DNA of 64,000 nt from a virus (Duplodnaviria; Caudoviricetes), in IMG/VR virus record IMGVR_UViG_3300046694_000619; one strand, 5' to 3'. Of this stretch, positions 8,725 through 35,169 are shown one piece after another. The position numbers and the translations under genes are program-made. Position 1 is the first letter of the stretch; each line of letters begins with the position of its first letter. The notes beneath the pieces are model-generated. The model made no database searches. It was not told the origin of the DNA and saw nothing but the letters and a program-made list of their open reading frames with translations.

Positions 8725-11163
8725 TCAGATGTAGTCGGCGTCTCCGAAATCTACTGAGGCCGTCGACTCACCGGGTGAGGACTCGACGGCCTCTGGCCTG
8801 GGTGCCGCAGCTTCTGCATCCGGGACACGCTCGAGCGGCGCAACCGCGTCGCCGAGCGTTGCCTGGGTGGCGAGTGCAACCGCCTTGTCCGGCAGTGCCG
8901 CGCCAGCCCGCGCCCGTTTCCCGCGGTGCGCGTCGAGGTCCTTGCCGGTCAGCGTGACCTGTGTGTGCTTCTTTCGCGCCGAGGGCGTGGTCGACACCAC
9001 CAGCTCCGTCACCGGCCGTTCATAGGCCGCGACTGACTTCACCGTGTCCTTCCCGCTCAGACTGATGAGCTGCATGCCGCGGCCCTTGGCCATCTGTTTG
9101 AGCTCGACGAGCGGAAACAGCAGCACCTTGCCCGAACTCGCGCCCACGGCAATTTCTCCGCCATCGCGCAGTGCCCTCACGGCGGTCGGAGCCAGAATGG
9201 CTTCACCGTCTTCGAGTGTCATCACCGCCTTGCCGGCCTTCTTGCTCGTGACCAGCTCCGCGCCCGGGCAGAGGAAGCCATAACCGCCGCTGTTGGCCAG
9301 CAGGTAGTGCGTATCAGTGTCGAGCACGAACGCGTGCACAAGCTTGTTCGAGCCAATTTCGACGAATGAGGAGAGCGGCGAGCCGTCACCGCGGCCAGTC
9401 GGGAATACCGACGCCGCGACGTTGTAAGCGCGGCCCGTGTGGTCGAACATCACCACCGTCTGCGTGCTGCGCGTCTCAATTACCGCGAGCGCTTCGTCAC
9501 CCGCTTTCCAAGTGAGCGCGGACAGGTCGACCTTGTGACCGGTGCGCGCGCGCAGCCAGCCCAGTTTCGAGATAACGAGCGTGACCGGGTCATCACTGGT
9601 TGCCACCACCGACGAGGTGGTGATGCGCTCGGCCGACTCGATGAGGGTACGACGCGCGTCGCCATACTTCTTGCGGTCGTCGCCCAGTTCATTGAGCACC
9701 TGCTTCGTCATCGCGCCACGGTCATCGAGCAGGCCTTGCAGCACAGCCTCTTCCTTGCGTAGCTCGGCGAGTTCGCTCTCAATCTTGATGCGCTCGAGAT
9801 TGGCGAGCTGGCGCAGGCGGATTTCAAGAATGTCTGTCGCCTGAATATCGGACAGCCCGAACCGGCTCATGAGCTGTGCCTTGGCATCCGCTGAGTCACG
9901 GATAACGCGGATGACTTCGTCGATATGGAGGAACACCGTCAGGCGGCCCTCGAGGATGTGCATGCGTGCGCGAACCTGGTTCAACAGGAATTGCGTACGG
10001 CGCGTCACGGTCTCGAACCGGAAGGCGACCCATTCTTGGAGCACCTGAAGCAGCCCCTTCTGGCCCGGCGCGCCATCCGCGCCAATGGTCACCAGGTTCA
10101 TCGAGAAGTTCGATTCGAGGCTCGTGTGTGCGAGCAGAACCTGCATCACCTCATCCGGGCTCTGGCGTGAGCTACGCGGCTCTATGATGAGCCGGACCGG
10201 ATGCTGCGCATCGGAATCATCCGAAATCTTGTCGACCACCGACAGCACGAGCGCCTTCAGGTTTGCCTGGTCCTGCGTGAGGCTCTTCTTACCCGCCTTG
10301 AGTTGAGGGTTCGACAACTCTTCGATTTCGGCCATGACCTTCGCCGTGGACGTCCCCGGCGGCAGCTCGGTAATCGCAATCTGCCATTGCCCACGCGCCA
10401 GTGGCTCAACAGTCCAGCGCGCACGCGTGCGCAGCGACCCGCGACCGGTCGTGTAGGCCTTGGCCACTTCGTCCGCCGACGAGATGAGTTGCGCGCCGCC
10501 CGGGAAATCCGGACCCGGCATGATGGCCAGGATGTCTGCGAGCATAGCTTCCGGATGACGGATGAGGTACTCGCAAGCAAGCGCCACTTCAGTCAGGTTG
10601 TGGCTCGGAATTTCGGTGGCCATACCCACAGCGATACCCGATGCGCCGTTCAGAAGCAGCACGGGCAGGCGAGCAGGCAGCAAACCCGGTTCCTGGAGCG
10701 AGCCGTCATAGTTGGGTGCGAAATCCACCGTGCCCTTGTCGAGCTCGCCCAGCAACAGCTCGGCAATCGGCGTCAGGCGTGCTTCGGTATATCGCATTGC
10801 CGCTGGCGAATCGCCATCGCGAGAGCCAAAGTTTCCTTGGCCGTCGACGATGGGGTAGCGCAACGAGAAGTCCTGCGCCATCCGCACCGCGGCGTCATAC
10901 ACCGACGAGTCGCCGTGCGGGTGGTACTTACCGATGATGTCGCCGACGAAACGCGCACACTTCACAGGCTTGCTCTTGTCGTTCAGCCCCATGCGGTGCA
11001 TCGAATAGAGAATGCGCCGTTGCACGGGCTTCTGGCCGTCGCGGACATCCGGGAGCGCGCGGCCCAGCACCACGCTCATTGCATAGGCGAGGTACGCATT
11101 CTCCGCGTAGTCGCCGATGTCGACGGCGTTCGACGAGTCAGCGGGTTCAAGCACTTCAGACAT
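8725..11163 (-). CDS. parC: DNA topoisomerase IV subunit A
   Basis: [26 protein letters not shown] catalytic Tyr; no GyrA-box seen. Confidence 0.93.
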
Positions 11164-14000: not shown

Positions 14001-15971
14001 TCACACGTCGAGGTCCGCTTCCTTGCCGCGCACTTCCAGCCAGGAGCGCCGCGCGCTCGCTTCGCCCTTGCCCATCAGCAGCGTGAAAATGCGATTTACG
14101 TCCTTCATCTCGCCGACCGTGACCGGCAACAGCAAACGCGTATCCGGACTGAGCACGGTGTCTTTCAGCTGGTCGGGGTTCATTTCGCCCAGACCCTTGA
14201 AGCGCGACACTGTCAGCTGCTCGAGCCGGAAGCCATCGCGCTGAAGCTGTGCCACGTTGTCATCGCGCTCCTGCTCGGTCAGGCAGTAAATTTTCTGTGC
14301 CGGACGGCCCTTGCCCTTCGACGGCGCATCGACACGGAAGAGCGGCGGCTTGGCGATGAACACATGCCCGCGCGTCACGAGCTGCGGGAAGTGGCGGTAA
14401 AAGAGCGTGAGCAGTAGCGTCTGGATGTGCGAGCCGTCAACGTCAGCGTCCGAGAGGATGATGACCTTCCCGTAACGCAGGTTGTCCAGCACGCTCGCCG
14501 GCGCTTCGACGTCATGCGGGTCGATACCGAGCGCGACGGAAATGTCGTGCACTTCGTTGTTCTCGAACAGGCGGTCGCGCTCGGTCTCCCACGTGTTGAG
14601 CACCTTCCCGCGCAGCGGCAGGATGGCCTGATACACCCGGTCGCGAGCCACCTTGCAGCCGCCGCCGGCCGAGTCGCCTTCCACGAGGAACAGTTCGTTG
14701 CGCGTGATGTCAGTCAGCTGACAATCGGTAAGCTTTCCGGGCAGGGTTGCCACGCCGGAGCTCTTGCGCTTCTCGACGACCTTGCCGCTACGCAAGCGCG
14801 CAGTCGCCTGCTTGATGACGAGTTCGGCAATCTTCTTACCCGAATCCGGATTGGCCAAAAGCCACTGCATGAAGGGGTCTTTCACGACGGAAGACACGAC
14901 GCGCACAACTTCGCGGCTCGTGAGCTTGTCCTTTGTCTGACCCTGGAACTGGGTGTTGACGATGTGGGCCGACAGCACGAAGTGCGCGCGGCTCCAGACA
15001 TCTTCAGCCTGCAGTGTGATGCCGCGGGGAAGCAGGGCGTGATGCTCGCAGTAGTCACGCATCGCCTCAAAGAGCCCCGTGCGCATGCCCGCTTCGTGGG
15101 TGCCGCCAAGCGGAGTAGGGATAAGGTTCACGTACGACTCGCCCTTGCCCGCTTCCGTGGTCCAGGCCACGGCCCACGCGGCACCATCGCCCGCGACCAC
15201 GTCTTCGCCGTCGGCTACCTTCAGGTGGCCTTCGCCCTTGAAAATATCGCCGACCTGCTCGAGGCCTTCCATGCGCTCTTTCAGATACGCTTTCAGCCCT
15301 TCCTGATAGCACCAAGTCTGTTCTGCGCCCGTGACCTCATTGACGTAGGAGACCGTGATGCCCGGCAGCAACATCGCCTTCGCGCGCAGCAGGTGTTCCA
15401 GCTTCGCGAGCGGGAGATTCCCGGTGTCGAAGTGCTTTGCGTCGGGCCAGAAGCGAACCTTCGTGCCGGACGTGCGAGGTCCGCACTCGCCGATTTGCTC
15501 GACAGGCGAAATCTCGCGGTCGCCTTCGACGAAGCTCACCTTGTAGACCTTTCCTTCGCGCTTCACCTCGACTTCGAGCTTGTGCGAAAGGGCGTTCGTC
15601 ACCGAGACGCCGACACCATGAAGGCCACCCGAGCGAGCGTAGCTATTGCCCTTGCGGAACTTCGCGCCTGCGTGCAGCTTGGTGAATGCGAGGACCACCG
15701 CCGGGATGCCCAGCTTGGGGTGCAATCCCACCGGGATACCCCGGCCGTTATCGGCCACAGAAATGGACCCATCCTTATGCACCGTCAGGGACACCTTGGA
15801 GGCATGGCCGTTCTGGGCCTCATCGACGGCGTTGTCGAGCACCTCCTGGGTGATGTGCAGAGGTGATTCCGTGCGGGTGTACATCCCCGGCAGCTTGCGC
15901 ACGGGGTCCAGCCCTTCGAGAACGTCGATGTCGGATGCGTCGTAGACCTTCTGGTCTTCAGTCGTTGCCAT
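14001..15971 (-). CDS. parE: DNA topoisomerase IV subunit B
   Basis: EVLDNAVDE, GLHGVG, EGDSAGG, PLRGK, DADVDG, RFKGLGEM. Confidence 0.93.
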   Translation of the reverse strand: MATTEDQKVYDASDIDVLEGLDPVRKLPGMYTRTESPLHITQEVLDNAVDEAQNGHASKVSLTVHKDGSISVADNGRGIPVGLHPKLGIPAVVLAFTKLHAGAKFRKGNSYARSGGLHGVGVSVTNALSHKLEVEVKREGKVYKVSFVEGDREISPVEQIGECGPRTSGTKVRFWPDAKHFDTGNLPLAKLEHLLRAKAMLLPGITVSYVNEVTGAEQTWCYQEGLKAYLKERMEGLEQVGDIFKGEGHLKVADGEDVVAGDGAAWAVAWTTEAGKGESYVNLIPTPLGGTHEAGMRTGLFEAMRDYCEHHALLPRGITLQAEDVWSRAHFVLSAHIVNTQFQGQTKDKLTSREVVRVVSSVVKDPFMQWLLANPDSGKKIAELVIKQATARLRSGKVVEKRKSSGVATLPGKLTDCQLTDITRNELFLVEGDSAGGGCKVARDRVYQAILPLRGKVLNTWETERDRLFENNEVHDISVALGIDPHDVEAPASVLDNLRYGKVIILSDADVDGSHIQTLLLTLFYRHFPQLVTRGHVFIAKPPLFRVDAPSKGKGRPAQKIYCLTEQERDDNVAQLQRDGFRLEQLTVSRFKGLGEMNPDQLKDTVLSPDTRLLLPVTVGEMKDVNRIFTLLMGKGEASARRSWLEVRGKEADLDV

Positions 15972-16056
15972 AAAACCTTGCTCGGCTATTCGTTGATGAT
16001 GATGACCATGGGGTATAGCGAGATTGAGAGGGGCCGCACCACAGGCGCCCCGCCAA

Positions 16057-16545
16057 TCAATCTGACAACCGCACCAGGTCAGCGACATTGACCATGCGCA
16101 GCGTCAAGCGCCGGGCAGGGTAGAAAATCTGTTTGGTTTGCACGGCATCGTCGACCAGCACGACCTCCGTGTCGTCGAACTCAGGGCTCATCTCGATGAA
16201 GTGCTGAAATCCGAAGTCCTTGCCATGAAACAGCATGCATTCGTTGTCGCTCTCGAAAACCGTGCCCCGGCTCAGGCAGAGATGAAAAAGCTTCTCTGTC
16301 GTGAAGGTGTCCGCCAGGTCGAGCGTCACGCCGAGCGCCCGGTTGAGCCTTGCCTCAAAGAATTCGCGAAACAGTGCGACCCGGTGCTCATCCCATAGCG
16401 CAAAGGAAAAGAGCCGTACCGCCTCCGGCGCTTCGTCTTCGATAAAACCCCGGACAGGCTCCACGTTCACAAGCCGTGCGAGCGCCGCGGCATCGAATTC
16501 GTCGATGACCGTGTCTTCCAGGTCCAGGAACACGACTTTCTTCAT
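16057..16545 (-). CDS. HAD-like hypothetical protein
   Basis: VVFLDLEDTVI and VLVDD motifs. Confidence 0.6.
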   Translation of the reverse strand: MKKVVFLDLEDTVIDEFDAAALARLVNVEPVRGFIEDEAPEAVRLFSFALWDEHRVALFREFFEARLNRALGVTLDLADTFTTEKLFHLCLSRGTVFESDNECMLFHGKDFGFQHFIEMSPEFDDTEVVLVDDAVQTKQIFYPARRLTLRMVNVADLVRLSD

Positions 16546-24228: not shown

Positions 24229-26064
24229 ATGGACCTCATTTCAAAACTGCTGGATAGCCAGGAGGCGTCGGCCGCAGCCTTCGGGTTTCTGGCCTACGCC
24301 TTGTTTATTGTGTGGCGCCGCGCGTCGGCGCGCTGGGTGAACTGGTTCCCGCCACTCGCCAAGATTGCTCGCCTCGCGCTCTATGCCTGCGCGCTCGTCG
24401 TCGGCTTCATCGGCTTTCGCGTACTCACCAACGCGGATGCGTCGCCTTACACCTGGCTGCTCGTCGTTGGTGGTGGCTGTACGGGTCCCGTGCTGAACCG
24501 CGTGTCCCGCTTCCTGCGCCCGAAAGAAAAGATTCGCCGCGGCGCGCGCGTGGGCACGCCCGCTGACGTCAACAAGCAGAGTAGCAAGGAGATGCCGTCC
24601 AGCGACTTCAAGGACAGCTTCGAGATGGGCGGCGTGAAAATCCCGCGCTCGGCCGAACCGTATCACTTCTTCGTGGTCGGCTCGACGGGTACGGGTAAGT
24701 CGGTGGCCATCACCAACCTCATGGACGAAATCGAAGCGCGCGGCGACATCGCGCTCGTCGTCGACTCGGGTGGTGAGTTTTCTTCGCGCTACTTCAAGCC
24801 GGGCCGCGACCACATCCTGAATCCGTTCGACGACCGTTGCGCACCCTGGTCGCCTACTGCAGAGCTTGCGGGCCCTTGGGACGCTGAAGCGCTCGCCAAG
24901 TCGATGGTGCCGGACGGTGTCGGAGACTCGAAGGAATGGAACGGCTACGCGCAGACGTTCGTGACGTCCGTGTTGCGTCGGCTCATGGCATTGAACCGCC
25001 TCTCCATCAAGGACCTGCTGTACTACGTCCAGGCCGCGCCCATCGAGGAGCTCACGCCATTGCTGGCCGGCACGTCGGCCGCCGCACAACTGGTTTCGGA
25101 CCGGACTTTCGGGTCCATCCGGACGATTGCGACCAACTATCTGTCGACGTACGCGTATCTGTCGGACAACGACAACCCCTTCTCGGTGGCGAAGTTCATC
25201 CGTGCCGAAAAGCCGGGATTCCTGTTCTTCACGTACCGCGACGACCAGCTCGATTCGCTGCGCAACATGATTGCCTGCGCGCTTGACGTAGCGGCGCGGA
25301 CCATCCTTGCGTTGCCTGCCAATAGTGAGCGACGGGTATGGCTCATCATCGACGAGTTCGCCTCAATCGGCAAAGTGCAGAGCATCGAGGCCGTGGCAAC
25401 CAAGGCACGGAAGATGGGTGGTTGCCTGCTGATTGGTCTGCAGTCGGTTTCGCAGTTGCAGGAACGCTACGGCGAGAAGGGCGCGCAAACCATTCTGTCG
25501 TGCTTGAGCTCCTGGCTCGTGCTGCGCTGCTCCGACGCGGAGACATCTGAGTACGTCTCGAGGTACATCGGCGATACGGAAATCTCCCGCATGACCCGCT
25601 CGGAGTCTACTTCCGACACGGGCGGCGGCTCGGACTCACGCAACGAACAGATTCAGACCCAGCGCGCGGTGATGCCGGTGGAGCTGCAAAAACTTGTCAA
25701 CCTGCACGGCTTCTTCAAGCTCGCCGGCGGCTACCCCATCTGCAACGTCAAGCTGAGCTACCCCAAGAAGCGCGAAGCACGCTCCCAGAAATACGCCGAA
25801 CGCGACTTCATCGCGAAGCCGATGCTCGACCTCATTCCGGCTACCACTCCGGCGAGCCCGGCTGGTGGAAGTGAAGGCGCGGGACAGGGCATGCAACCGC
25901 AGGCCCACGCCGAGGACGCGAACACGTCGGTCGCCGACACGCATCCGACCGCTGAAACCGAACAAGCCACCTTGCGGGTCCGCAAGAGCCCGCTCGAAGA
26001 GGGGCCTGCCGCCCTCGAAGAAATTCTGAATGAACTGGCAGAAGCGTTCGAAAACGATTTTTAA
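24229..26064 (+). CDS. traD: Type IV secretion coupling protein (TraD/TrwB family)
   Basis: N-terminal TM segments, GSTGTGKS, ILNPFD.R...WSP, WLIIDEFAS, LQSVSQL. Confidence 0.85.
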   Translation: MDLISKLLDSQEASAAAFGFLAYALFIVWRRASARWVNWFPPLAKIARLALYACALVVGFIGFRVLTNADASPYTWLLVVGGGCTGPVLNRVSRFLRPKEKIRRGARVGTPADVNKQSSKEMPSSDFKDSFEMGGVKIPRSAEPYHFFVVGSTGTGKSVAITNLMDEIEARGDIALVVDSGGEFSSRYFKPGRDHILNPFDDRCAPWSPTAELAGPWDAEALAKSMVPDGVGDSKEWNGYAQTFVTSVLRRLMALNRLSIKDLLYYVQAAPIEELTPLLAGTSAAAQLVSDRTFGSIRTIATNYLSTYAYLSDNDNPFSVAKFIRAEKPGFLFFTYRDDQLDSLRNMIACALDVAARTILALPANSERRVWLIIDEFASIGKVQSIEAVATKARKMGGCLLIGLQSVSQLQERYGEKGAQTILSCLSSWLVLRCSDAETSEYVSRYIGDTEISRMTRSESTSDTGGGSDSRNEQIQTQRAVMPVELQKLVNLHGFFKLAGGYPICNVKLSYPKKREARSQKYAERDFIAKPMLDLIPATTPASPAGGSEGAGQGMQPQAHAEDANTSVADTHPTAETEQATLRVRKSPLEEGPAALEEILNELAEAFENDF

Positions 26065-27447
26065 ATGAACTCCTTGCTCATCCCAAATCCGAGCCAGCCC
26101 CACGATACTTACCGGATTCTGGTGGCAGACGATTCCCCGGTCCTCCGGGGCGTTTTCCGGTCCTTCAATACCGGTGAGGTGATTGTGCGCGACGTGGTTA
26201 CAGACCGCCCGGCCCTCATTCGAGCCTTGAAGGATGCGCACGACCTTGACGCCGTGCTGTGTTCCGACCATCTGGCCGGCCGCTACGGCGGCGTCCTCGC
26301 CCTCAATGAGCTTCGCGAGAGCAAGCTGCTGCCACACGAAACCGCCTTCATCATGATGAGCGGTGACGCACGCCGGTCCAACCTGATGGTGGACATCGAG
26401 GCGAAGCCCGACAGCATCCTGCTCAAGCCGTTTGCGCCCGCGACGCTTGTGCGCAAGCTGGCTCAAACGGTGCCGGTGCGTCGCGCGCTGGCCCATGTGC
26501 GCCGGCAGGCCGACGCTCAGAACTGGGGCGACGTCCTGCGCGTGACTAACCGGATGCTGGAGGAGGGCACGGACTTCCCGACGGCTGTGCTATCGCTCAA
26601 ACTGGAGGCGCTGAGCAAGCTCGGGCAGCACGATGTAGTCATGGCCCTGTACGAGACCATCCTGGAGAACTCGCCCAGGTCGGTCGCGCTCCTCGAGCCT
26701 ATCGCGCGCTATGCCTACGACCAAGGCCAGCTGGTGAACGCAGAGAAGACGCTTGTGCGCATGTTGGCGCTGCAGCCGGCAAACTGCTTCGCAGCGGACC
26801 TGCTCGCAGACATCAAGCTCGAGCGCGGCGACTCGGTCGGGGCGCAGCTCCAGCTGCATCAGGCACTGCGGCACTCGCCTAATAGTATTGGGCGCCACCG
26901 TGCGCTCGGTCACATTGCGCTGCTCAACAACGACCTGGTTACGGCACAGCGCGCATATGCGGCCGCGATGCGACTCAATGCGGAAACATTCGGGCTCAGC
27001 GAGGTCGACGTCGCGAACGTTGTACGTGCTCTGTTGCTTAACGGCGACAACCTGCACGCCAATCGAGCCATCCGCGACGCACGGCATGTATTGCGGGAAA
27101 ACCTGGTGCTCGACGTGCTTCAGCAGCTCACCGAGGCTATGCTGTATCGCGAGTTTGACTCCTTCGGCCGGACGCAGCAACGCGTACAGCAAGGCATCGC
27201 GCTCCTGGAGCGCACCATCCTGCCCGACAATGGCGTAATGCTTTTGGCAGCCACGGAAGCGAGCTTGATGGCGTCACTTGCACATCGCGGGTACCAGCTC
27301 AGTTCTGCGTTACTGAACAAGCGTTCGCATGTTAAGTTGCATCCTGCACAAAAAAGATGGGCCGAGAAGCTTCACAAGTGGTCCAGAGATGTGCACAATG
27401 AAGTTCTGCCGGAAGGCATGTTGCAGTATCAGCAGTACATGCAGTAA
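26065..27447 (+). CDS. Response regulator receiver + TPR protein
   Basis: ILVADDS, LLKPF, TPR-like helices. Confidence 0.75.
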   Translation: MNSLLIPNPSQPHDTYRILVADDSPVLRGVFRSFNTGEVIVRDVVTDRPALIRALKDAHDLDAVLCSDHLAGRYGGVLALNELRESKLLPHETAFIMMSGDARRSNLMVDIEAKPDSILLKPFAPATLVRKLAQTVPVRRALAHVRRQADAQNWGDVLRVTNRMLEEGTDFPTAVLSLKLEALSKLGQHDVVMALYETILENSPRSVALLEPIARYAYDQGQLVNAEKTLVRMLALQPANCFAADLLADIKLERGDSVGAQLQLHQALRHSPNSIGRHRALGHIALLNNDLVTAQRAYAAAMRLNAETFGLSEVDVANVVRALLLNGDNLHANRAIRDARHVLRENLVLDVLQQLTEAMLYREFDSFGRTQQRVQQGIALLERTILPDNGVMLLAATEASLMASLAHRGYQLSSALLNKRSHVKLHPAQKRWAEKLHKWSRDVHNEVLPEGMLQYQQYMQ

Positions 27448-27528
27448 GTAACTCATTGATTTTGTTGGTGAGTTAAGTGTTAACACTTAGACGCGCGAAA
27501 ATATTTTCAACTTTTTTGAATTTGAGTG

Positions 27529-27556
27529 TTGACATGCAGGTTGGTGGTGCTATACT
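27529..27556 (+). promoter_or_regulatory. Strong sigma70-like promoter of the tRNA island
   Basis: TTGACA-N16-TATACT with extended -10 TG and upstream A/T tracts. Confidence 0.75.
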
Positions 27557-27632
27557 AGCTCACATGGTCCTCATAACCGAGGACTGAAACCAGCAGTAAA
27601 CCCAATTTACGAACATTTACGGAATCGAAATC

Positions 27633-27809
27633 ATGACACGCAGCCTCCGCCCAATCAACGCCGCCTCCACGCTTAATGCGTGGAATGGCGTTGTGCGCGT
27701 CGGATTCTCGCCGTCGAAAGATTGCGGTTTTAGCGCACTGAGCCTGGGCTTGGGTTATCAACCCGAGCATATTCAGGAACAGGTGCATTCCGGGAGGAAG
27801 GGCAGATAA
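27633..27809 (+). CDS. Putative attenuator leader peptide (58 aa)
   Basis: MTRSLRPINAASTLNAWNGVVRVGFSPSKDCGFSALSLGLGYQPEHIQEQVHSGRKGR, between promoter and terminator. Confidence 0.6.
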   Translation: MTRSLRPINAASTLNAWNGVVRVGFSPSKDCGFSALSLGLGYQPEHIQEQVHSGRKGR

Positions 27810-27838
27810 TATCGCCTAGACCTCAAGGTTCAAGACAG

Positions 27839-27878
27839 AACCCCCGGAATGCGCAAGCACCCGGGGGTTTTTGTTTTT
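27839..27878 (+). terminator. Attenuator-type intrinsic terminator upstream of the tRNA array
   Basis: aacccccgg-aatgc-gcaa-gcac-ccgggggtt followed by a U-tract. Confidence 0.8.
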
Positions 27879-28126
27879 AACCACCAAACAACGTGCCAAA
27901 CGGAACGAGACCGTGGCCAGCACGATACCGGCAAAGCCGGATGGCAAATGGGCGGGGTCCCGGATTGAAACTGCGGAGGAAACGCAGGAGTAAAATGGGC
28001 ATGCGGAGGGACGACCTCCGCACTTTTTCAAGGGTCTTGTCGACTTGTTAACCCGAGTAGGGTCCTTGAAAAAGCGATGACGCAGTCGCTTGATTGCGAA
28101 ATTTACGTTTTCATGTGATACATGAC

Positions 28127-28202
28127 GCCGGTTTAGCTCAGATGGAAGAGCTACTGTTTTGTAAACAGAGGGTCACGGGTTCGAATCCTGTAGCCGGCAC
28201 CA
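28127..28202 (+). tRNA. tRNA-Thr(TGT)
   Basis: Cloverleaf, loop TT-TGT-AA, CCA. Confidence 0.9.
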
Positions 28203-28213
28203 CCCATCACGCT

Positions 28214-28290
28214 CGGGGCATAGCGCAGTCTGGTAGCGCGTCTGCATGGGGTGCAGAAGGCCGCAGGTTCGAATCCTGCTGTCCCGACCA
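28214..28290 (+). tRNA. tRNA-Pro(GGG)
   Basis: Cloverleaf, loop AT-GGG-GT, CCA. Confidence 0.9.
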
Positions 28291-28300
28291 ACGGTTCAAT

Positions 28301-28376
28301 GCGGGTGTAGCTCAGATGGTAGAGCAGAAGCCTTCCAAGCTTAGTGTCGCGAGTTCGATTCTCGTCGCCCGCTCCA
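28301..28376 (+). tRNA. tRNA-Gly(TCC)
   Basis: Cloverleaf, CT-TCC-AA, U73, CCA. Confidence 0.9.
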
Positions 28377-28507
28377 GTTCCTTGTTGTCGCAGTCATGCG
28401 TTAAATGGCGTCTGCCGGTTGTCCTCTCTCCGGCGCGGTCACTGCGATAAGTGACGTGCTGGCAGGCAAGCTGCAAGCCGTGCTGACGGGAATCAGCGCG
28501 CAACGCT

Positions 28508-28591
28508 GCCCAGGTGGTGAAATGGAAGACACGCTGGTTTCAGAAGCCAGTGGCGAAAGCTGTGAGGGTTCGAGTCCCTCCCTGGGCACCA
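28508..28591 (+). tRNA. tRNA-Leu(CAG)
   Basis: Class II cloverleaf, TT-CAG-AA. Confidence 0.9.
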
Positions 28592-28644
28592 TTAGTACAA
28601 CTTACATGTAGTAGGTCGCAATCACTGCATGTTTTCGCTTCAAC

Positions 28645-28730
28645 GGGGATGTGGCTGAGTGGCCGAAGGCGGCGGACTGTAAATCCGTTCTGTAAAAAGC
28701 GCGATGGTTCGAATCCATCCGTCCCCACCA
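28645..28730 (+). tRNA. tRNA-Tyr(GTA)
   Basis: Class II cloverleaf, CT-GTA-AA. Confidence 0.9.
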
Positions 28731-28745
28731 CGATTTTTTTGCAAT

Positions 28746-28822
28746 GCCTAGGTAGCTCAGCATGGTAGAGCGCCGTCTTGATAAGGCGAGGGTCGCTGGT
28801 TCAAATCCAGCTCTAGGTACCA
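28746..28822 (+). tRNA. tRNA-Ile(GAT)
   Basis: TT-GAT-AA, CCA. Confidence 0.88.
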
Positions 28823-28832
28823 GTTTCACAAT

Positions 28833-28909
28833 TGGCCAGTAGCTCAGTTCGGTAGAGCGCTCCGCTGTTAACGGAAGGGTCACGGGTTCGAAGCCTGTCT
28901 GGCCAGCCA
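28833..28909 (+). tRNA. tRNA-Asn(GTT)
   Basis: CT-GTT-AA, G73, CCA. Confidence 0.88.
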
Positions 28910-28918
28910 ATTTACGAT

Positions 28919-29004
28919 GCACGTGTGGCCGAGCGGTTGAAGGCACTGGGCTGCAAACCCAGCGATGAAACTCCACGCCAGTTCGAATCTGGCCACGTGC
29001 TCCA
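28919..29004 (+). tRNA. tRNA-Cys(GCA) with long variable region
   Basis: CT-GCA-AA, U73, 14-nt variable region. Confidence 0.85.
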
Positions 29005-29031
29005 GTCGCTGTTGCTAGTTGTACGAATAAT

Positions 29032-29117
29032 GCACGCGTAGCCAAGAGGTCGAAGGCACAGGTCCGCAAAACCTACGACGCAAGTCCACGTCAGTTCGAA
29101 TCTGACCGCGTGCTCCA
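29032..29117 (+). tRNA. tRNA-Cys(GCA), C33 variant with variable arm
   Basis: CC-GCA-AA, U73, gac-gcaa-gtc arm. Confidence 0.82.
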
Positions 29118-29140
29118 GTAGTTCCTGAAGTTTGCTTTGC

Positions 29141-29214
29141 TCCGGTGTAGCTCAGTTCGGTAGAGCGCCTGGCTGTTAACCAGGATGTCGGTGGTTCGAA
29201 CCCACTCTCCGGAG
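29141..29214 (+). tRNA. tRNA-Asn(GTT), no encoded CCA
   Basis: CT-GTT-AA, followed by CAA. Confidence 0.85.
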
Positions 29215-29231
29215 CAAAGCAAAGTTTCAAT

Positions 29232-29308
29232 GCTCGGATAGCTCAGTTTGGTAGAGCGCCGGCCCGATAAGCCGTAGGTCGCTGGTTCAAATCCAGCTCC
29301 GAGTACCA
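29232..29308 (+). tRNA. tRNA-Ile(GAT), C33 variant
   Basis: CC-GAT-AA, CCA. Confidence 0.85.
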
Positions 29309-29316
29309 AGTTTTCT

Positions 29317-29392
29317 GCGGGAATAGCTCAGTTGGTAGAGCGCAACCTTGCCAAGGTTGAGGTCGCGAGTTCGAGACTCGTTTCCCGCTCCA
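29317..29392 (+). tRNA. tRNA-Gly(GCC)
   Basis: Canonical proteobacterial-type Gly-GCC sequence. Confidence 0.93.
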
Positions 29393-29403
29393 GGTTTGCC
29401 CTT

Positions 29404-29480
29404 GCAGGGGTAGCTCAGTTGGCTAGAGCATCTGCTTGCCATGCAGAAGGTCGCGAGTTCGAGTCTCGTTCCCTGCTCCA
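29404..29480 (+). tRNA. tRNA-Gly(GCC), divergent copy
   Basis: TT-GCC-AT, U73, CCA. Confidence 0.88.
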
Positions 29481-29488
29481 GTTTCATC

Positions 29489-29586
29489 GCCGAGATAGTC
29501 CGGTCGGTGCCGGTACGAATCCATAAGAGTTGTCGCTTGGTGACCCAGGCGCAGCCCACGCAGTTCGACTCTGCGTCTCGGCTCCA
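29489..29586 (+). ncRNA. Sec/allo-tRNA-like RNA, anticodon unclear
   Basis: GCCGAGA(T)/(G)TCTCGGC acceptor, CGGT D-tetraloop, long variable arm, TTCGACT T-loop, TCCA. Confidence 0.65.
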
Positions 29587-29595
29587 GCTTCATTT

Positions 29596-29672
29596 GCGGT
29601 AGTAGCTCAGCTGGTTAGAGCGCCGGCCTGTCGAGCCGGGGGTCACGGGTTCGAGTCCCGTCTGCCGCGCCA
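29596..29672 (+). tRNA. tRNA-Asp(GTC)
   Basis: CT-GTC-GA, G73, CCA. Confidence 0.9.
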
Positions 29673-29684
29673 GTTTCACCCGAT

Positions 29685-29760
29685 GTTCCGTTGGACTTTT
29701 GGTAAGGTCAGCAGGCTTTCAACCTGCGCAAGCTCGGTTCGAATCCGGCACGGAACTCCA
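29685..29760 (+). tRNA. tRNA-Glu(TTC)
   Basis: CT-TTC-AA, CCA; divergent D arm. Confidence 0.82.
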
Positions 29761-29769
29761 GATTACATT

Positions 29770-29845
29770 GCTCCGTTAACTCAGCGGCCAGAGTGCGTCC
29801 CTGTCCAGGACGAAGCCGAGGGTTCGACTCCCTCACGGGGCGCCA
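29770..29845 (+). tRNA. tRNA-Asp(GTC)
   Basis: CT-GTC-CA, G73, CCA. Confidence 0.88.
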
Positions 29846-29855
29846 GTTTCACAGC

Positions 29856-29931
29856 AGGGGGTAAATCGATTGGAGCAGATACTTGGCTTTGACCCAAGGT
29901 GAGTCGGGTTCGATTCCCACACCCCCTTCCA
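29856..29931 (+). tRNA. tRNA-Gln(TTG), atypical D and T arms
   Basis: CT-TTG-AC, AGGGGGT/ACCCCCT acceptor, CCA. Confidence 0.75.
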
Positions 29932-29943
29932 AAAAATCACAAC

Positions 29944-30019
29944 GTGCGCTTCGTCTAGTGGCCCAGGACCCCGTCTAACAAGGCGGGAGACACAGGTTCG
30001 AATCCTGTAGCGCGCTCCA
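29944..30019 (+). tRNA. Glu-like tRNA body with 6-nt anticodon loop TAACAA
   Basis: TCGTCTAGTGGCCCAGGAC D arm as in tRNA-Glu; CCGTC-TAACAA-GGCGG. Confidence 0.65.
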
Positions 30020-30039
30020 GTAACAACAAAGCACATTGC

Positions 30040-30112
30040 ATGACTGTGGCGCAATTGGCAGCGCAGCGGTCTCCAAAACCGAAGGTTGAGAGTTCGACCC
30101 TCTCCAGTCATG
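30040..30112 (+). tRNA. tRNA-Trp(CCA), no encoded CCA end
   Basis: CT-CCA-AA, followed by CAA. Confidence 0.87.
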
Positions 30113-30131
30113 CAATGTGTTTTCCCCCTGT

Positions 30132-30208
30132 CTGGGCGTAATGTCAGTTGGTAGACGGCCGGCTTTGGAAGCCGGAGGCCGCAGGTTCGAGTCCTGTCGC
30201 CCAGACCA
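30132..30208 (+). tRNA. tRNA-Pro(TGG)
   Basis: TT-TGG-AA, CCA. Confidence 0.87.
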
Positions 30209-30220
30209 AATTTTTTCAAC

Positions 30221-30297
30221 ACTCGGGTCGTCTAGCTGGCCTAGGACACCGCCCTTTCAAGGCGGGCACGCGGGTTCGAATCCCGTCCCGAGTACCA
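30221..30297 (+). tRNA. tRNA-Glu(TTC)
   Basis: CT-TTC-AA, CCA. Confidence 0.9.
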
Positions 30298-30313: not shown

Positions 30314-30859
30314 ATGTTGACGTGCGTGAATTATAGGCCCGGCTTCGTGGCCAATCCGAATCCGATTTTCGATGCGCTGTGGTCCGAGCTGGACTGGGAG
30401 CGCAGAGGCTCGACGCCCAGGCGTGAGTATTACTGCAACGACGTCGGCGTGCCGTATGTCTATGGCCGCGGCGCCGGCGTACGGGAATACCTGCCCAAGG
30501 CCATGCATCCCGCCCTGGCTGCCCTGAAAGGCGAGACGGAAGCCGCACTGAGCACCAAGTTCGAAGTGGCCTTTCTGAACGGCTACGAGGACGCCCGCGA
30601 CAGCTTGGGCTGGCACGCGGATGACAGCGAGTCGATGGATGACAATCGTCCCATCGCCATCCTGACGCTGGGCGCGGAACGCGAAATCTGGTTCTGCCGC
30701 AACACCGACCGCTCCGACATCACGAAGCTGGTGCTGGGCAACGGCAGCCTGTGCGTCATGGCGCCGGGCATGCAAGATACCCACCTGCACAGAATCCCCA
30801 AGGCGGGGTTCGAGTGCGGCCCGCGTATCAGTATTACATTCAGGGGTTACGTAGCGTAG
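30314..30859 (+). CDS. AlkB-family 2OG-Fe(II) dioxygenase
   Basis: FLNGY.D.RDSLGWHADD, H.IPK, RISITFR. Confidence 0.9.
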   Translation: MLTCVNYRPGFVANPNPIFDALWSELDWERRGSTPRREYYCNDVGVPYVYGRGAGVREYLPKAMHPALAALKGETEAALSTKFEVAFLNGYEDARDSLGWHADDSESMDDNRPIAILTLGAEREIWFCRNTDRSDITKLVLGNGSLCVMAPGMQDTHLHRIPKAGFECGPRISITFRGYVA

Positions 30860-34705: not shown

Positions 34706-34769
34706 TTAAAGCATAGTTGCCATTAAGCATTTTTAATGATATAATGCAAAGCATCAGTAGTGCACACCT

Positions 34770-35084: not shown

Positions 35085-35169
35085 GCTCCGAATGGCGGAA
35101 TTGGTTAGACGCCTTGGTCGTACCAGGGACCGCAAGGTCGTGTGGGTTCGAATCCCGCTTCGGGCACCA
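35085..35169 (+). ncRNA. tRNA-Leu-like RNA with shrunken anticodon loop
   Basis: Leu-type D arm, variable arm and A73-CCA; anticodon arm CTTGG-TCGTA-CCAGG. Confidence 0.7.

Follow-up and report, generated by a model that had tools for sequence, protein, structure and literature searches.

A probable leader-peptide attenuator that may gauge overall decoding capacity heads a plasmid-borne tRNA array

The tRNA array of a large replicon related to those of Burkholderia is headed by what is probably a leader-peptide transcription attenuator, most likely one that gauges overall decoding capacity. In the window, by which we mean the whole 64,000-nucleotide stretch of DNA that was analysed, a promoter is followed by a short ORF, by a terminator whose 5' arm can alternatively pair with the end of that ORF, and by a conserved structured RNA that leads to the first tRNA genes. 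The peptide encoded by the leader holds all 20 amino acids in every homologue found, and the leader probably raises transcription toward the replicon's tRNAs when ribosomes decode slowly. From the sequence and its modelled folds we infer the direction and dynamics of the switch, its triggering by any codon, and the extension of read-through to the tRNAs.

Results

The replicon and the relatives of the leader

The window has a G+C content of about 0.6 and carries 52 tRNA genes, all on the plus strand and spanning 28127-53411. When it was compared with plasmids and phages by megablast and blastn, tRNA genes were the sole matches. Many rhizosphere metagenomes contain DNA near-identical to the window. 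Among genome assemblies, those of Burkholderia multivorans (GCA_019039935.1) and Paraburkholderia aspalathi (GCA_016621965.1) carry related loci, others lie on metagenome contigs of 0.35-0.7 Mb, and for Burkholderia ambifaria a homologous leader peptide is on record. Since the relatives lie on large contigs and in Burkholderia and Paraburkholderia, and since conjugation genes are present, we consider the element to be a large replicon of the conjugative type, with Burkholderia-like hosts. The features that frame the leader are the following.

8725-11163 and 14001-16088: topoisomerase IV/gyrase A-like and B-like genes, the replicon's own, further upstream of the leader
24229-26064: type IV secretion coupling protein with TrwB/TraG domains, upstream of the tRNA array
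26065-27447: receiver-TPR protein, between the coupling protein gene and the leader promoter
28127-30297, plus strand: first tRNA block of 22 tRNA genes in close succession, the genes that read-through at terminator T1 would probably reach
34717-34745: strong promoter-like site TTGCCA-17-TATAAT with TG, inside the array and directly before tRNA-Leu(gag)

Homologues of the leader were collected by a protein search (3), a profile search (16) and an exhaustive profile search that added two more distant ones (P0021 and P0022); pattern scans of viral and metagenome sequences contributed L026, L027 and L028 only. Using the receiver-TPR protein as a query against genome contigs, we found nothing. The gene order in 15 loci is coupling protein, (receiver-TPR protein), leader, T1, conserved RNA and tRNA-Thr. 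A conserved 20-mer matched 15 times in unrelated taxa, always as a bare 20-24-mer, and we therefore attribute these matches to chance.

Promoter, ORF and terminator of the leader

The elements of the leader itself, and the segments that take part in its alternative folds, are listed below.

27529-27556, plus strand: sigma-70-type promoter TTGACA-16-TATACT with an extended -10 TG, agreeing with the consensus at 11 of 12 positions
27566-27585, plus strand: 5' stem-loop of the transcript, part of its minimum-energy fold
27633-27809, plus strand: 58-codon leader ORF with all 20 amino acids, ending AGG-AAG-GGC-AGA-TAA
27667-27683, plus strand: hairpin H1 (CCACGC/GCGTGG) inside the ORF, codons 12-17, paired in 96% of cells
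27729-27786, plus strand: segment 1 with hairpin H3, in the minimum-energy fold; the core of H3 (27748-27768) lies over the G-Y-Q-P codons
27783-27797, plus strand: segment 2, the antiterminator strand, formed by the 3' end of the ORF and complementary to the 5' arm and loop of T1
27838-27878, plus strand: intrinsic terminator T1 (segments 3 and 4) with a U-tract, -22.1 kcal/mol alone

The promoter is the sole strong site within 27000-28600 and stands directly upstream of the leader, no gene intervening. Its hexamers and a downstream CTCACAT are conserved in every promoter-bearing relative, and transcription would start near 27563. The 5' stem is maintained with differing sequences in the relatives L010, L027 and L036, as read from the alignments. 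The transcript as a whole (27563-27885) folds far better than its shuffles (z = -7), and in the minimum-energy fold the start region of the ORF is paired with downstream sequence. A promoter-like site on the minus strand (27833-27806) is absent in the relatives. We also considered and rejected a type I toxin-antitoxin small ORF, as the leader peptide is hydrophilic and the antisense promoter-like site is not conserved; a match to rdlD in the Rfam scan had an E value of 0.18 and fell below threshold.

The product of the ORF is MTRSLRPINAASTLNAWNGVVRVGFSPSKDCGFSALSLGLGYQPEHIQEQVHSGRKGR. Its 24 homologues are 56-62 amino acids long and share frame, start and stop down to 26% identity. In the most divergent full alignments the indels within the ORF measure 3, 6 and 3 nt and the stop codon stays aligned, while pairwise dN/dS ranges from 0.25 to 0.46, with dS exceeding dN. 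These in-frame indels, the aligned stop and the dN/dS values indicate that the leader ORF is translated and under moderate constraint. The Shine-Dalgarno sequence is weak, a GGA about 10-12 nt upstream. No family match to the peptide was found in Pfam or PHROGs, and AlphaFold2, run with the family alignment, predicts it to be disordered (pLDDT 58, no secondary structure). The motifs AW, VRG, GYQPEH and HSGRKGR/HSEGWDG are conserved in the family; together with a dN/dS below 1, this might alternatively reflect an independent function of the peptide. Codon runs are absent, many amino acids, among them Trp17, Asp30, Cys31 and Tyr42 of the window peptide, occur once only, and the leader is devoid of any cluster of regulatory amino-acid codons.

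Downstream of the ORF, between the leader and the genes it would regulate, lies T1. Its stem (27841-27847/27861-27867) continues into an inner TGC/GCA and a GCAA loop and is followed by T5GT5; because of the internal loop, a simple terminator scan misses it. Across 18 units, T1 is paired in 92% of cells, and its stem shows compensated changes, the variants being CCCCCGG/CCGGGGG, CCCCTGGG/CCCAGGGG and TCCCCGG/CCGGGGA. The near-invariance of the loop GGAATGCGCAAGC is unusual for a plain terminator; the loop is complementary to an equally invariant segment of the ORF, GCATTCCG. A boxA-like reading of the T1 tail was abandoned, this tail not being conserved.

Mutually exclusive pairings

At the end of the ORF, GTGCATTCCGGG (27783-27794) pairs with CCCGGAATGCGC (27843-27854) over 12 bp, including one G-U, at -22.0 kcal/mol, and the antiterminator pairing extends to 12-14 bp (27783-27797 with 27841-27854). 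T1 and this 2:3 duplex are equally stable and exclude each other, and the antiterminator overlaps the path of the ribosome. The best duplex between the ORF and the terminator arm reaches -27.3 kcal/mol, compared with -17.8 +/- 2.6 in 3000 dinucleotide shuffles (P = 0.0023). Among the 18 units, the antiterminator pairs are kept in 91% of cells, as opposed to 15-61% when the pairing is slid. Synonymous sites are frozen in three codons of segment 2, GTG, CAT and TCC (Ser TCC in 18/18, His CAT in 16/17).

As the antiterminator core, GCATTCCG/CGGAATGC, does not vary, it offers conservation but little covariation. Supportive changes occur at one or two positions only, namely from U-G to C-G or U-A at 27784/27853 and from G-C to A-U at 27793/27844, and some relatives have mismatches. 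The antiterminator covariation that had been proposed as a check is therefore sparse, although the pairing itself is conserved.

Further upstream, the hairpin at 27729-27786 is a putative anti-antiterminator, whose base GCAC/GUGC occupies only GUGC, the 5' end of segment 2. Its closing helix is paired in 83% of cells with one compensated pair (A-U to G-C at 27737/27784), and H3 in 84% with three. Position 27784 changes with both 27737, in the upstream helix, and 27853, in the T1 arm, as expected for a strand with two partners. Hairpin H1 has two pairs with compensatory changes, and its pairing drops to 21-61% of cells when slid.

The first-pass annotation of this DNA had read from the window a promoter, a 58-codon ORF with 20 amino acids and 43 distinct codons, an intrinsic terminator behind it, a 12-bp pairing of the ORF's 3' end with the terminator's 5' arm, and an upstream hairpin that partly sequesters the antiterminator strand. 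All of these are present as described, the hairpin in the minimum-energy fold and as a partial helix conserved among relatives. The annotation would have been undermined if homologous loci had no equivalent ORF and pairing; both are kept in the 15 related loci that we compared.

All 20 amino acids are kept in the leader peptide

All 20 amino acids are present in 24/24 leader peptides, first in 22 distinct peptides and then in P0021 and P0022. Such completeness is found in 4% of random 58-mers with the composition of the replicon and in 4.8% of real 57-amino-acid segments; even with the family's own flattened composition, a 57-58-mer would hold all 20 with a chance of 10%. As the peptides are related by descent, we rooted the inferred family tree on the window peptide and simulated evolution along it under LG+F+G4, with posterior site rates and family frequencies, a null that may miss some site preferences. 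The 21 other leaves were all complete in 0/2000 simulations, and in 0/5000 when Met1 was forced; on average, 6/21 leaves held all 20 amino acids.

The rare residues are retained at shifting positions. Cys is never missing and is spread over 8 alignment columns, the commonest of which accounts for 11/24 peptides; the corresponding column counts are 9 for Ile, 16 for Lys and 19 for Thr, and none of these residues is ever lost among the 24 peptides. The composition entropy of the peptides is 4.03-4.17 bits, which places the family mean in the top 2% and the minimum in the top 6% of local protein segments. By these comparisons, selection appears to keep every amino acid in the leader without fixing the positions of the rare ones. 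Elongator Met often goes unsampled, because many members have Met at the start only.

Codon diversity behaves differently. The 43 codons of the window exceed the number expected from local codon usage (33.4 +/- 2.5) and lie within that expected for this peptide under uniform synonymous use (40.7 +/- 2.3). Across the family, the number of distinct codons per unit varies between 32 and 43, as expected under unbiased synonymous choice. Sampling of nearly the whole code, as proposed for the leader, is thus not a family trait: what is conserved in the homologous leaders is amino-acid completeness, and not codon diversity.

Ribosome position and the choice of fold

We scanned the window sequence at thermodynamic equilibrium with a ribosome mask of 28 nt. 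With no ribosome, or with one placed over the stop or the last 13 codons, the terminator had a probability of 0.98-1.0, while a stall at codon 27, 31-42 or 45 gave the antiterminator a probability of 0.55-0.94. In this model, the logic is the classical 1:2 / 2:3 / 3:4 scheme. Eight relatives scanned in the same way gave inconsistent windows: L010 and L027 had stall windows similar to that of our sequence, some had no antiterminator window, and one was antiterminated by default. The state without a ribosome was the terminator in 8/9 units scanned. Given this inconsistency among homologues, the equilibrium model cannot tell which codons are read. Moreover, since only codons 27 and 31-45 act in the model of the window, codons upstream of them would matter only under kinetic lag.

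Among metatranscriptome contigs of low depth, one covers 27840-28044, across the end of T1 and past the second terminator-like hairpin T2, and another covers 27589-27736. The cover across T1 is a weak hint of read-through, as carry-over of DNA could produce it as well.

Four relatives carry two leader-plus-terminator units in series (L032:2121-2749, L037:2152-2749, L038:1509-2141 and L040:2140-2749), and in each pair both peptides contain all 20 amino acids. In L032 and L038, the tandem loci scanned for promoters, a single sigma-70-like promoter was scored, ahead of the first unit. This arrangement, together with the lack of a scored site from T1 to the first tRNA, speaks for termination that is conditional. 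Two such units in series would sharpen the response.

The RNA between T1 and the tRNA genes

Between T1 and the first tRNA gene, tRNA-Thr, lie two further elements.

27889-28030, plus strand: conserved structured RNA ending in a terminator-like hairpin, T2 (28002-28022 plus T5)
28023-28074, plus strand: long hairpin, read from the sequence, in which the T2 U-tract CTTTTTCAAGG is paired with a downstream A-tract CCTTGAAAAAG

The structured RNA is conserved more strongly than the leader ORF, with invariant junctions, and its indels of 1 and 2 nt mark it as non-coding. P1, P2 and T2 covary and the P2 loop AACGAGA is invariant; there is also a variable hairpin, P3, and P4, whose stem is invariant. 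The U-tract of T2 is degenerate in several relatives. A covariance model of the RNA found one copy per locus. Rfam gave no match for the leader or the downstream RNA (26500-29000 at E up to 1; 27875-28080 at E up to 10), and the idea that 27889-28030 is a T-box or an RNA resembling the RNase P specificity domain was dropped, no covariance model matching at E up to 10. A mini-ORF within it (AGGAG-ATG, at about 27986) was likewise set aside, since its start is not conserved in L010. This RNA may act as a second point of regulation, or it may be a processed sRNA.

The long hairpin keeps its structure with differing sequence in L027, L031 and L032; one possible role is that of a processing stem of the RNase III type, preceding the pre-tRNA. 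No sigma-70-like site was scored from T1 to tRNA-Thr in the window, L032 or L038. A weak promoter-like sequence, TTGCGA-16-TGATAC near 28096-28123, stands just before tRNA-Thr, is kept in some loci only, and may serve as a promoter there.

Discussion

A model for the leader

We propose that, once transcription has begun at the 27529 promoter, a ribosome would translate the 58-codon ORF while RNA polymerase proceeds to T1. A ribosome that keeps pace would cover the last 13 or so codons, and with them segment 2, as the 5' arm of T1 emerges, so that T1 would fold and transcription would stop. If the ribosome lags, segment 2 would be free, with segment 1 masked or melted, and would pair with the T1 5' arm and loop; this antiterminator would let the polymerase read into the structured RNA with T2 and onward to the first tRNA block. 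In the absence of translation, segment 1 and local hairpins would hold segment 2 and T1 would form. The signal would then be the summed decoding time of the whole ORF, a gauge of charged-tRNA supply or decoding capacity and not of a single amino acid.

Every amino acid is kept and the rare ones are not fixed in position, which makes summed decoding time the most likely signal. The mobile rare residues occur also at codons 11-24, outside the equilibrium window, and total transit time through the ORF would therefore best explain completeness.

The reach of the switch is likely to be narrower than first suggested. The first-pass annotation had the leader gating the giant array as a complete backup set, which is too broad, given that the structured RNA and T2 precede the first tRNA. 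In addition, the strong internal promoter at 34717 implies that the array comprises more than one transcription unit, and the leader would govern at most its first block of about 22 tRNAs.

A more elaborate version of the model is tentative, and we consider it rather less likely than not to hold in full. It would make the locus a two-checkpoint sensor of decoding failure, in which the pan-amino-acid leader is followed by the structured RNA with a terminator sensing perhaps tRNA or an alarmone. Replacement tRNAs would then be switched on upon depletion or cleavage of those of the host, anticodon nucleases directed against mobile elements being one possible cause.

Alternative explanations

The most serious alternative is an ordinary attenuator that senses only the amino acids encoded in segment 1 (codons ~31-45: C, G, F, S, A, L, Y, Q, P and E), the presence of all 20 having no sensing role. 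The scan of the window speaks in its favour, as it gives the antiterminator solely for stalls at codons 27 and 31-45 and the terminator for stalls upstream, with similar windows in L010 and L027. However, this reading leaves unexplained that Cys, Ile, Lys and Thr are mobile and always kept, including at codons 11-24 outside the window, nor does it account for the 0/5000 simulations. The lack of codon runs and the differing windows predicted among homologues also argue against it, and we judge it unlikely.

Alternatively, the leader might be a small-protein gene that stands by itself between its promoter and an efficient terminator; the peptide would then function in its own right, and other promoters would drive the tRNAs. 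The constraint on the ORF and its conserved motifs would suit such a gene, as would the strength of the T1 hairpin with its U-tract, the strong promoter at 34717 and the weak site before tRNA-Thr. On the other hand, the peptide has no family match or predicted fold, and a small-protein gene would not call for a conserved terminator loop complementary to the end of the ORF, for synonymous sites frozen there, or for completeness in amino acids. Furthermore, the second tandem units of L032 and L038 have no promoter of their own that we could score. We therefore hold this explanation to be improbable, somewhat more so than the previous one.

Finally, it is very improbable that the ORF is fortuitous and the transcript a structured non-coding sRNA of about 315 nt: although the folding z-score of -7, the covariation of H1 and H3 and the pairing of the start region with downstream sequence would fit it, frame, start and stop are conserved in all 24 homologues, dS exceeds dN, and the indels of the ORF are multiples of three, as opposed to those of 1 and 2 nt in the adjacent non-coding RNA.

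Relation to known regulatory leaders

The leader that we propose as a gauge of decoding capacity resembles trpL, hisL, pheL, leuL, thrL and ilvL/ivbL in having a promoter, a short translated ORF, exclusive 2:3 and 3:4 pairings with a putative 1:2 helix, and an intrinsic terminator; as in those leaders, a ribosome at the end of the ORF would lead to termination and a stall over segment 1 to read-through. Unlike them, it has no run of regulatory codons, and its ORF is long (57-62 codons) and complete for all 20 amino acids. It also differs in its position on a conjugative replicon, where it precedes a structured RNA and tRNAs instead of biosynthetic enzymes, and in being sometimes arranged in tandem. 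As it shares promoter, translated ORF, terminator and antiterminator with the trp, his and ilv leaders and lacks the codon cluster that defines them, we regard it as a variant and not a standard member of this class.

The leaders of vmlR, msrD and bmrCD respond to the slowing or stalling of the ribosome itself through a choice between terminator and antiterminator, similarly to what is proposed here. They differ in being short, in relying on specific arrest contexts and in controlling resistance genes, and we know of no amino-acid completeness in these antibiotic-responsive leaders. T-box riboswitches have a similar apparent purpose, since they couple translation components to tRNA charging, and a similar terminator/antiterminator read-out. 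Nevertheless, they bind one specific uncharged tRNA directly and without an ORF, and Rfam gave no T-box match here.

To our knowledge, textbook accounts of leader-peptide attenuation treat it solely as a gauge of one amino acid, or of a few, in biosynthetic operons. Our search of the literature returned no description of this leader, nor of tRNA genes under leader-peptide attenuation. If the model is true, the leader would sense decoding capacity in general and thereby control how translation components are supplied, and it would help to explain when mobile elements such as phages and plasmids express large tRNA arrays. As a compact natural part, it could also be used to report translation stress. 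The adjacent RNA at 27889-28030 is a motif that deserves study itself.

Other observations on the array

Several genes of the array are unusual in their own right. ARAGORN assigned four-base anticodons (aaca and acca) to two tRNA-like genes, at 29944-30019 and 35086-35169, and a length of 98 nt to a tRNA-Tyr(ata) at 29489-29586. A gene for an AlkB-like 2OG-Fe(II) oxygenase, with the PHROG label 'alkylated DNA repair', is embedded in the array at 30314-30859 and occupies the same position within the array in relatives.
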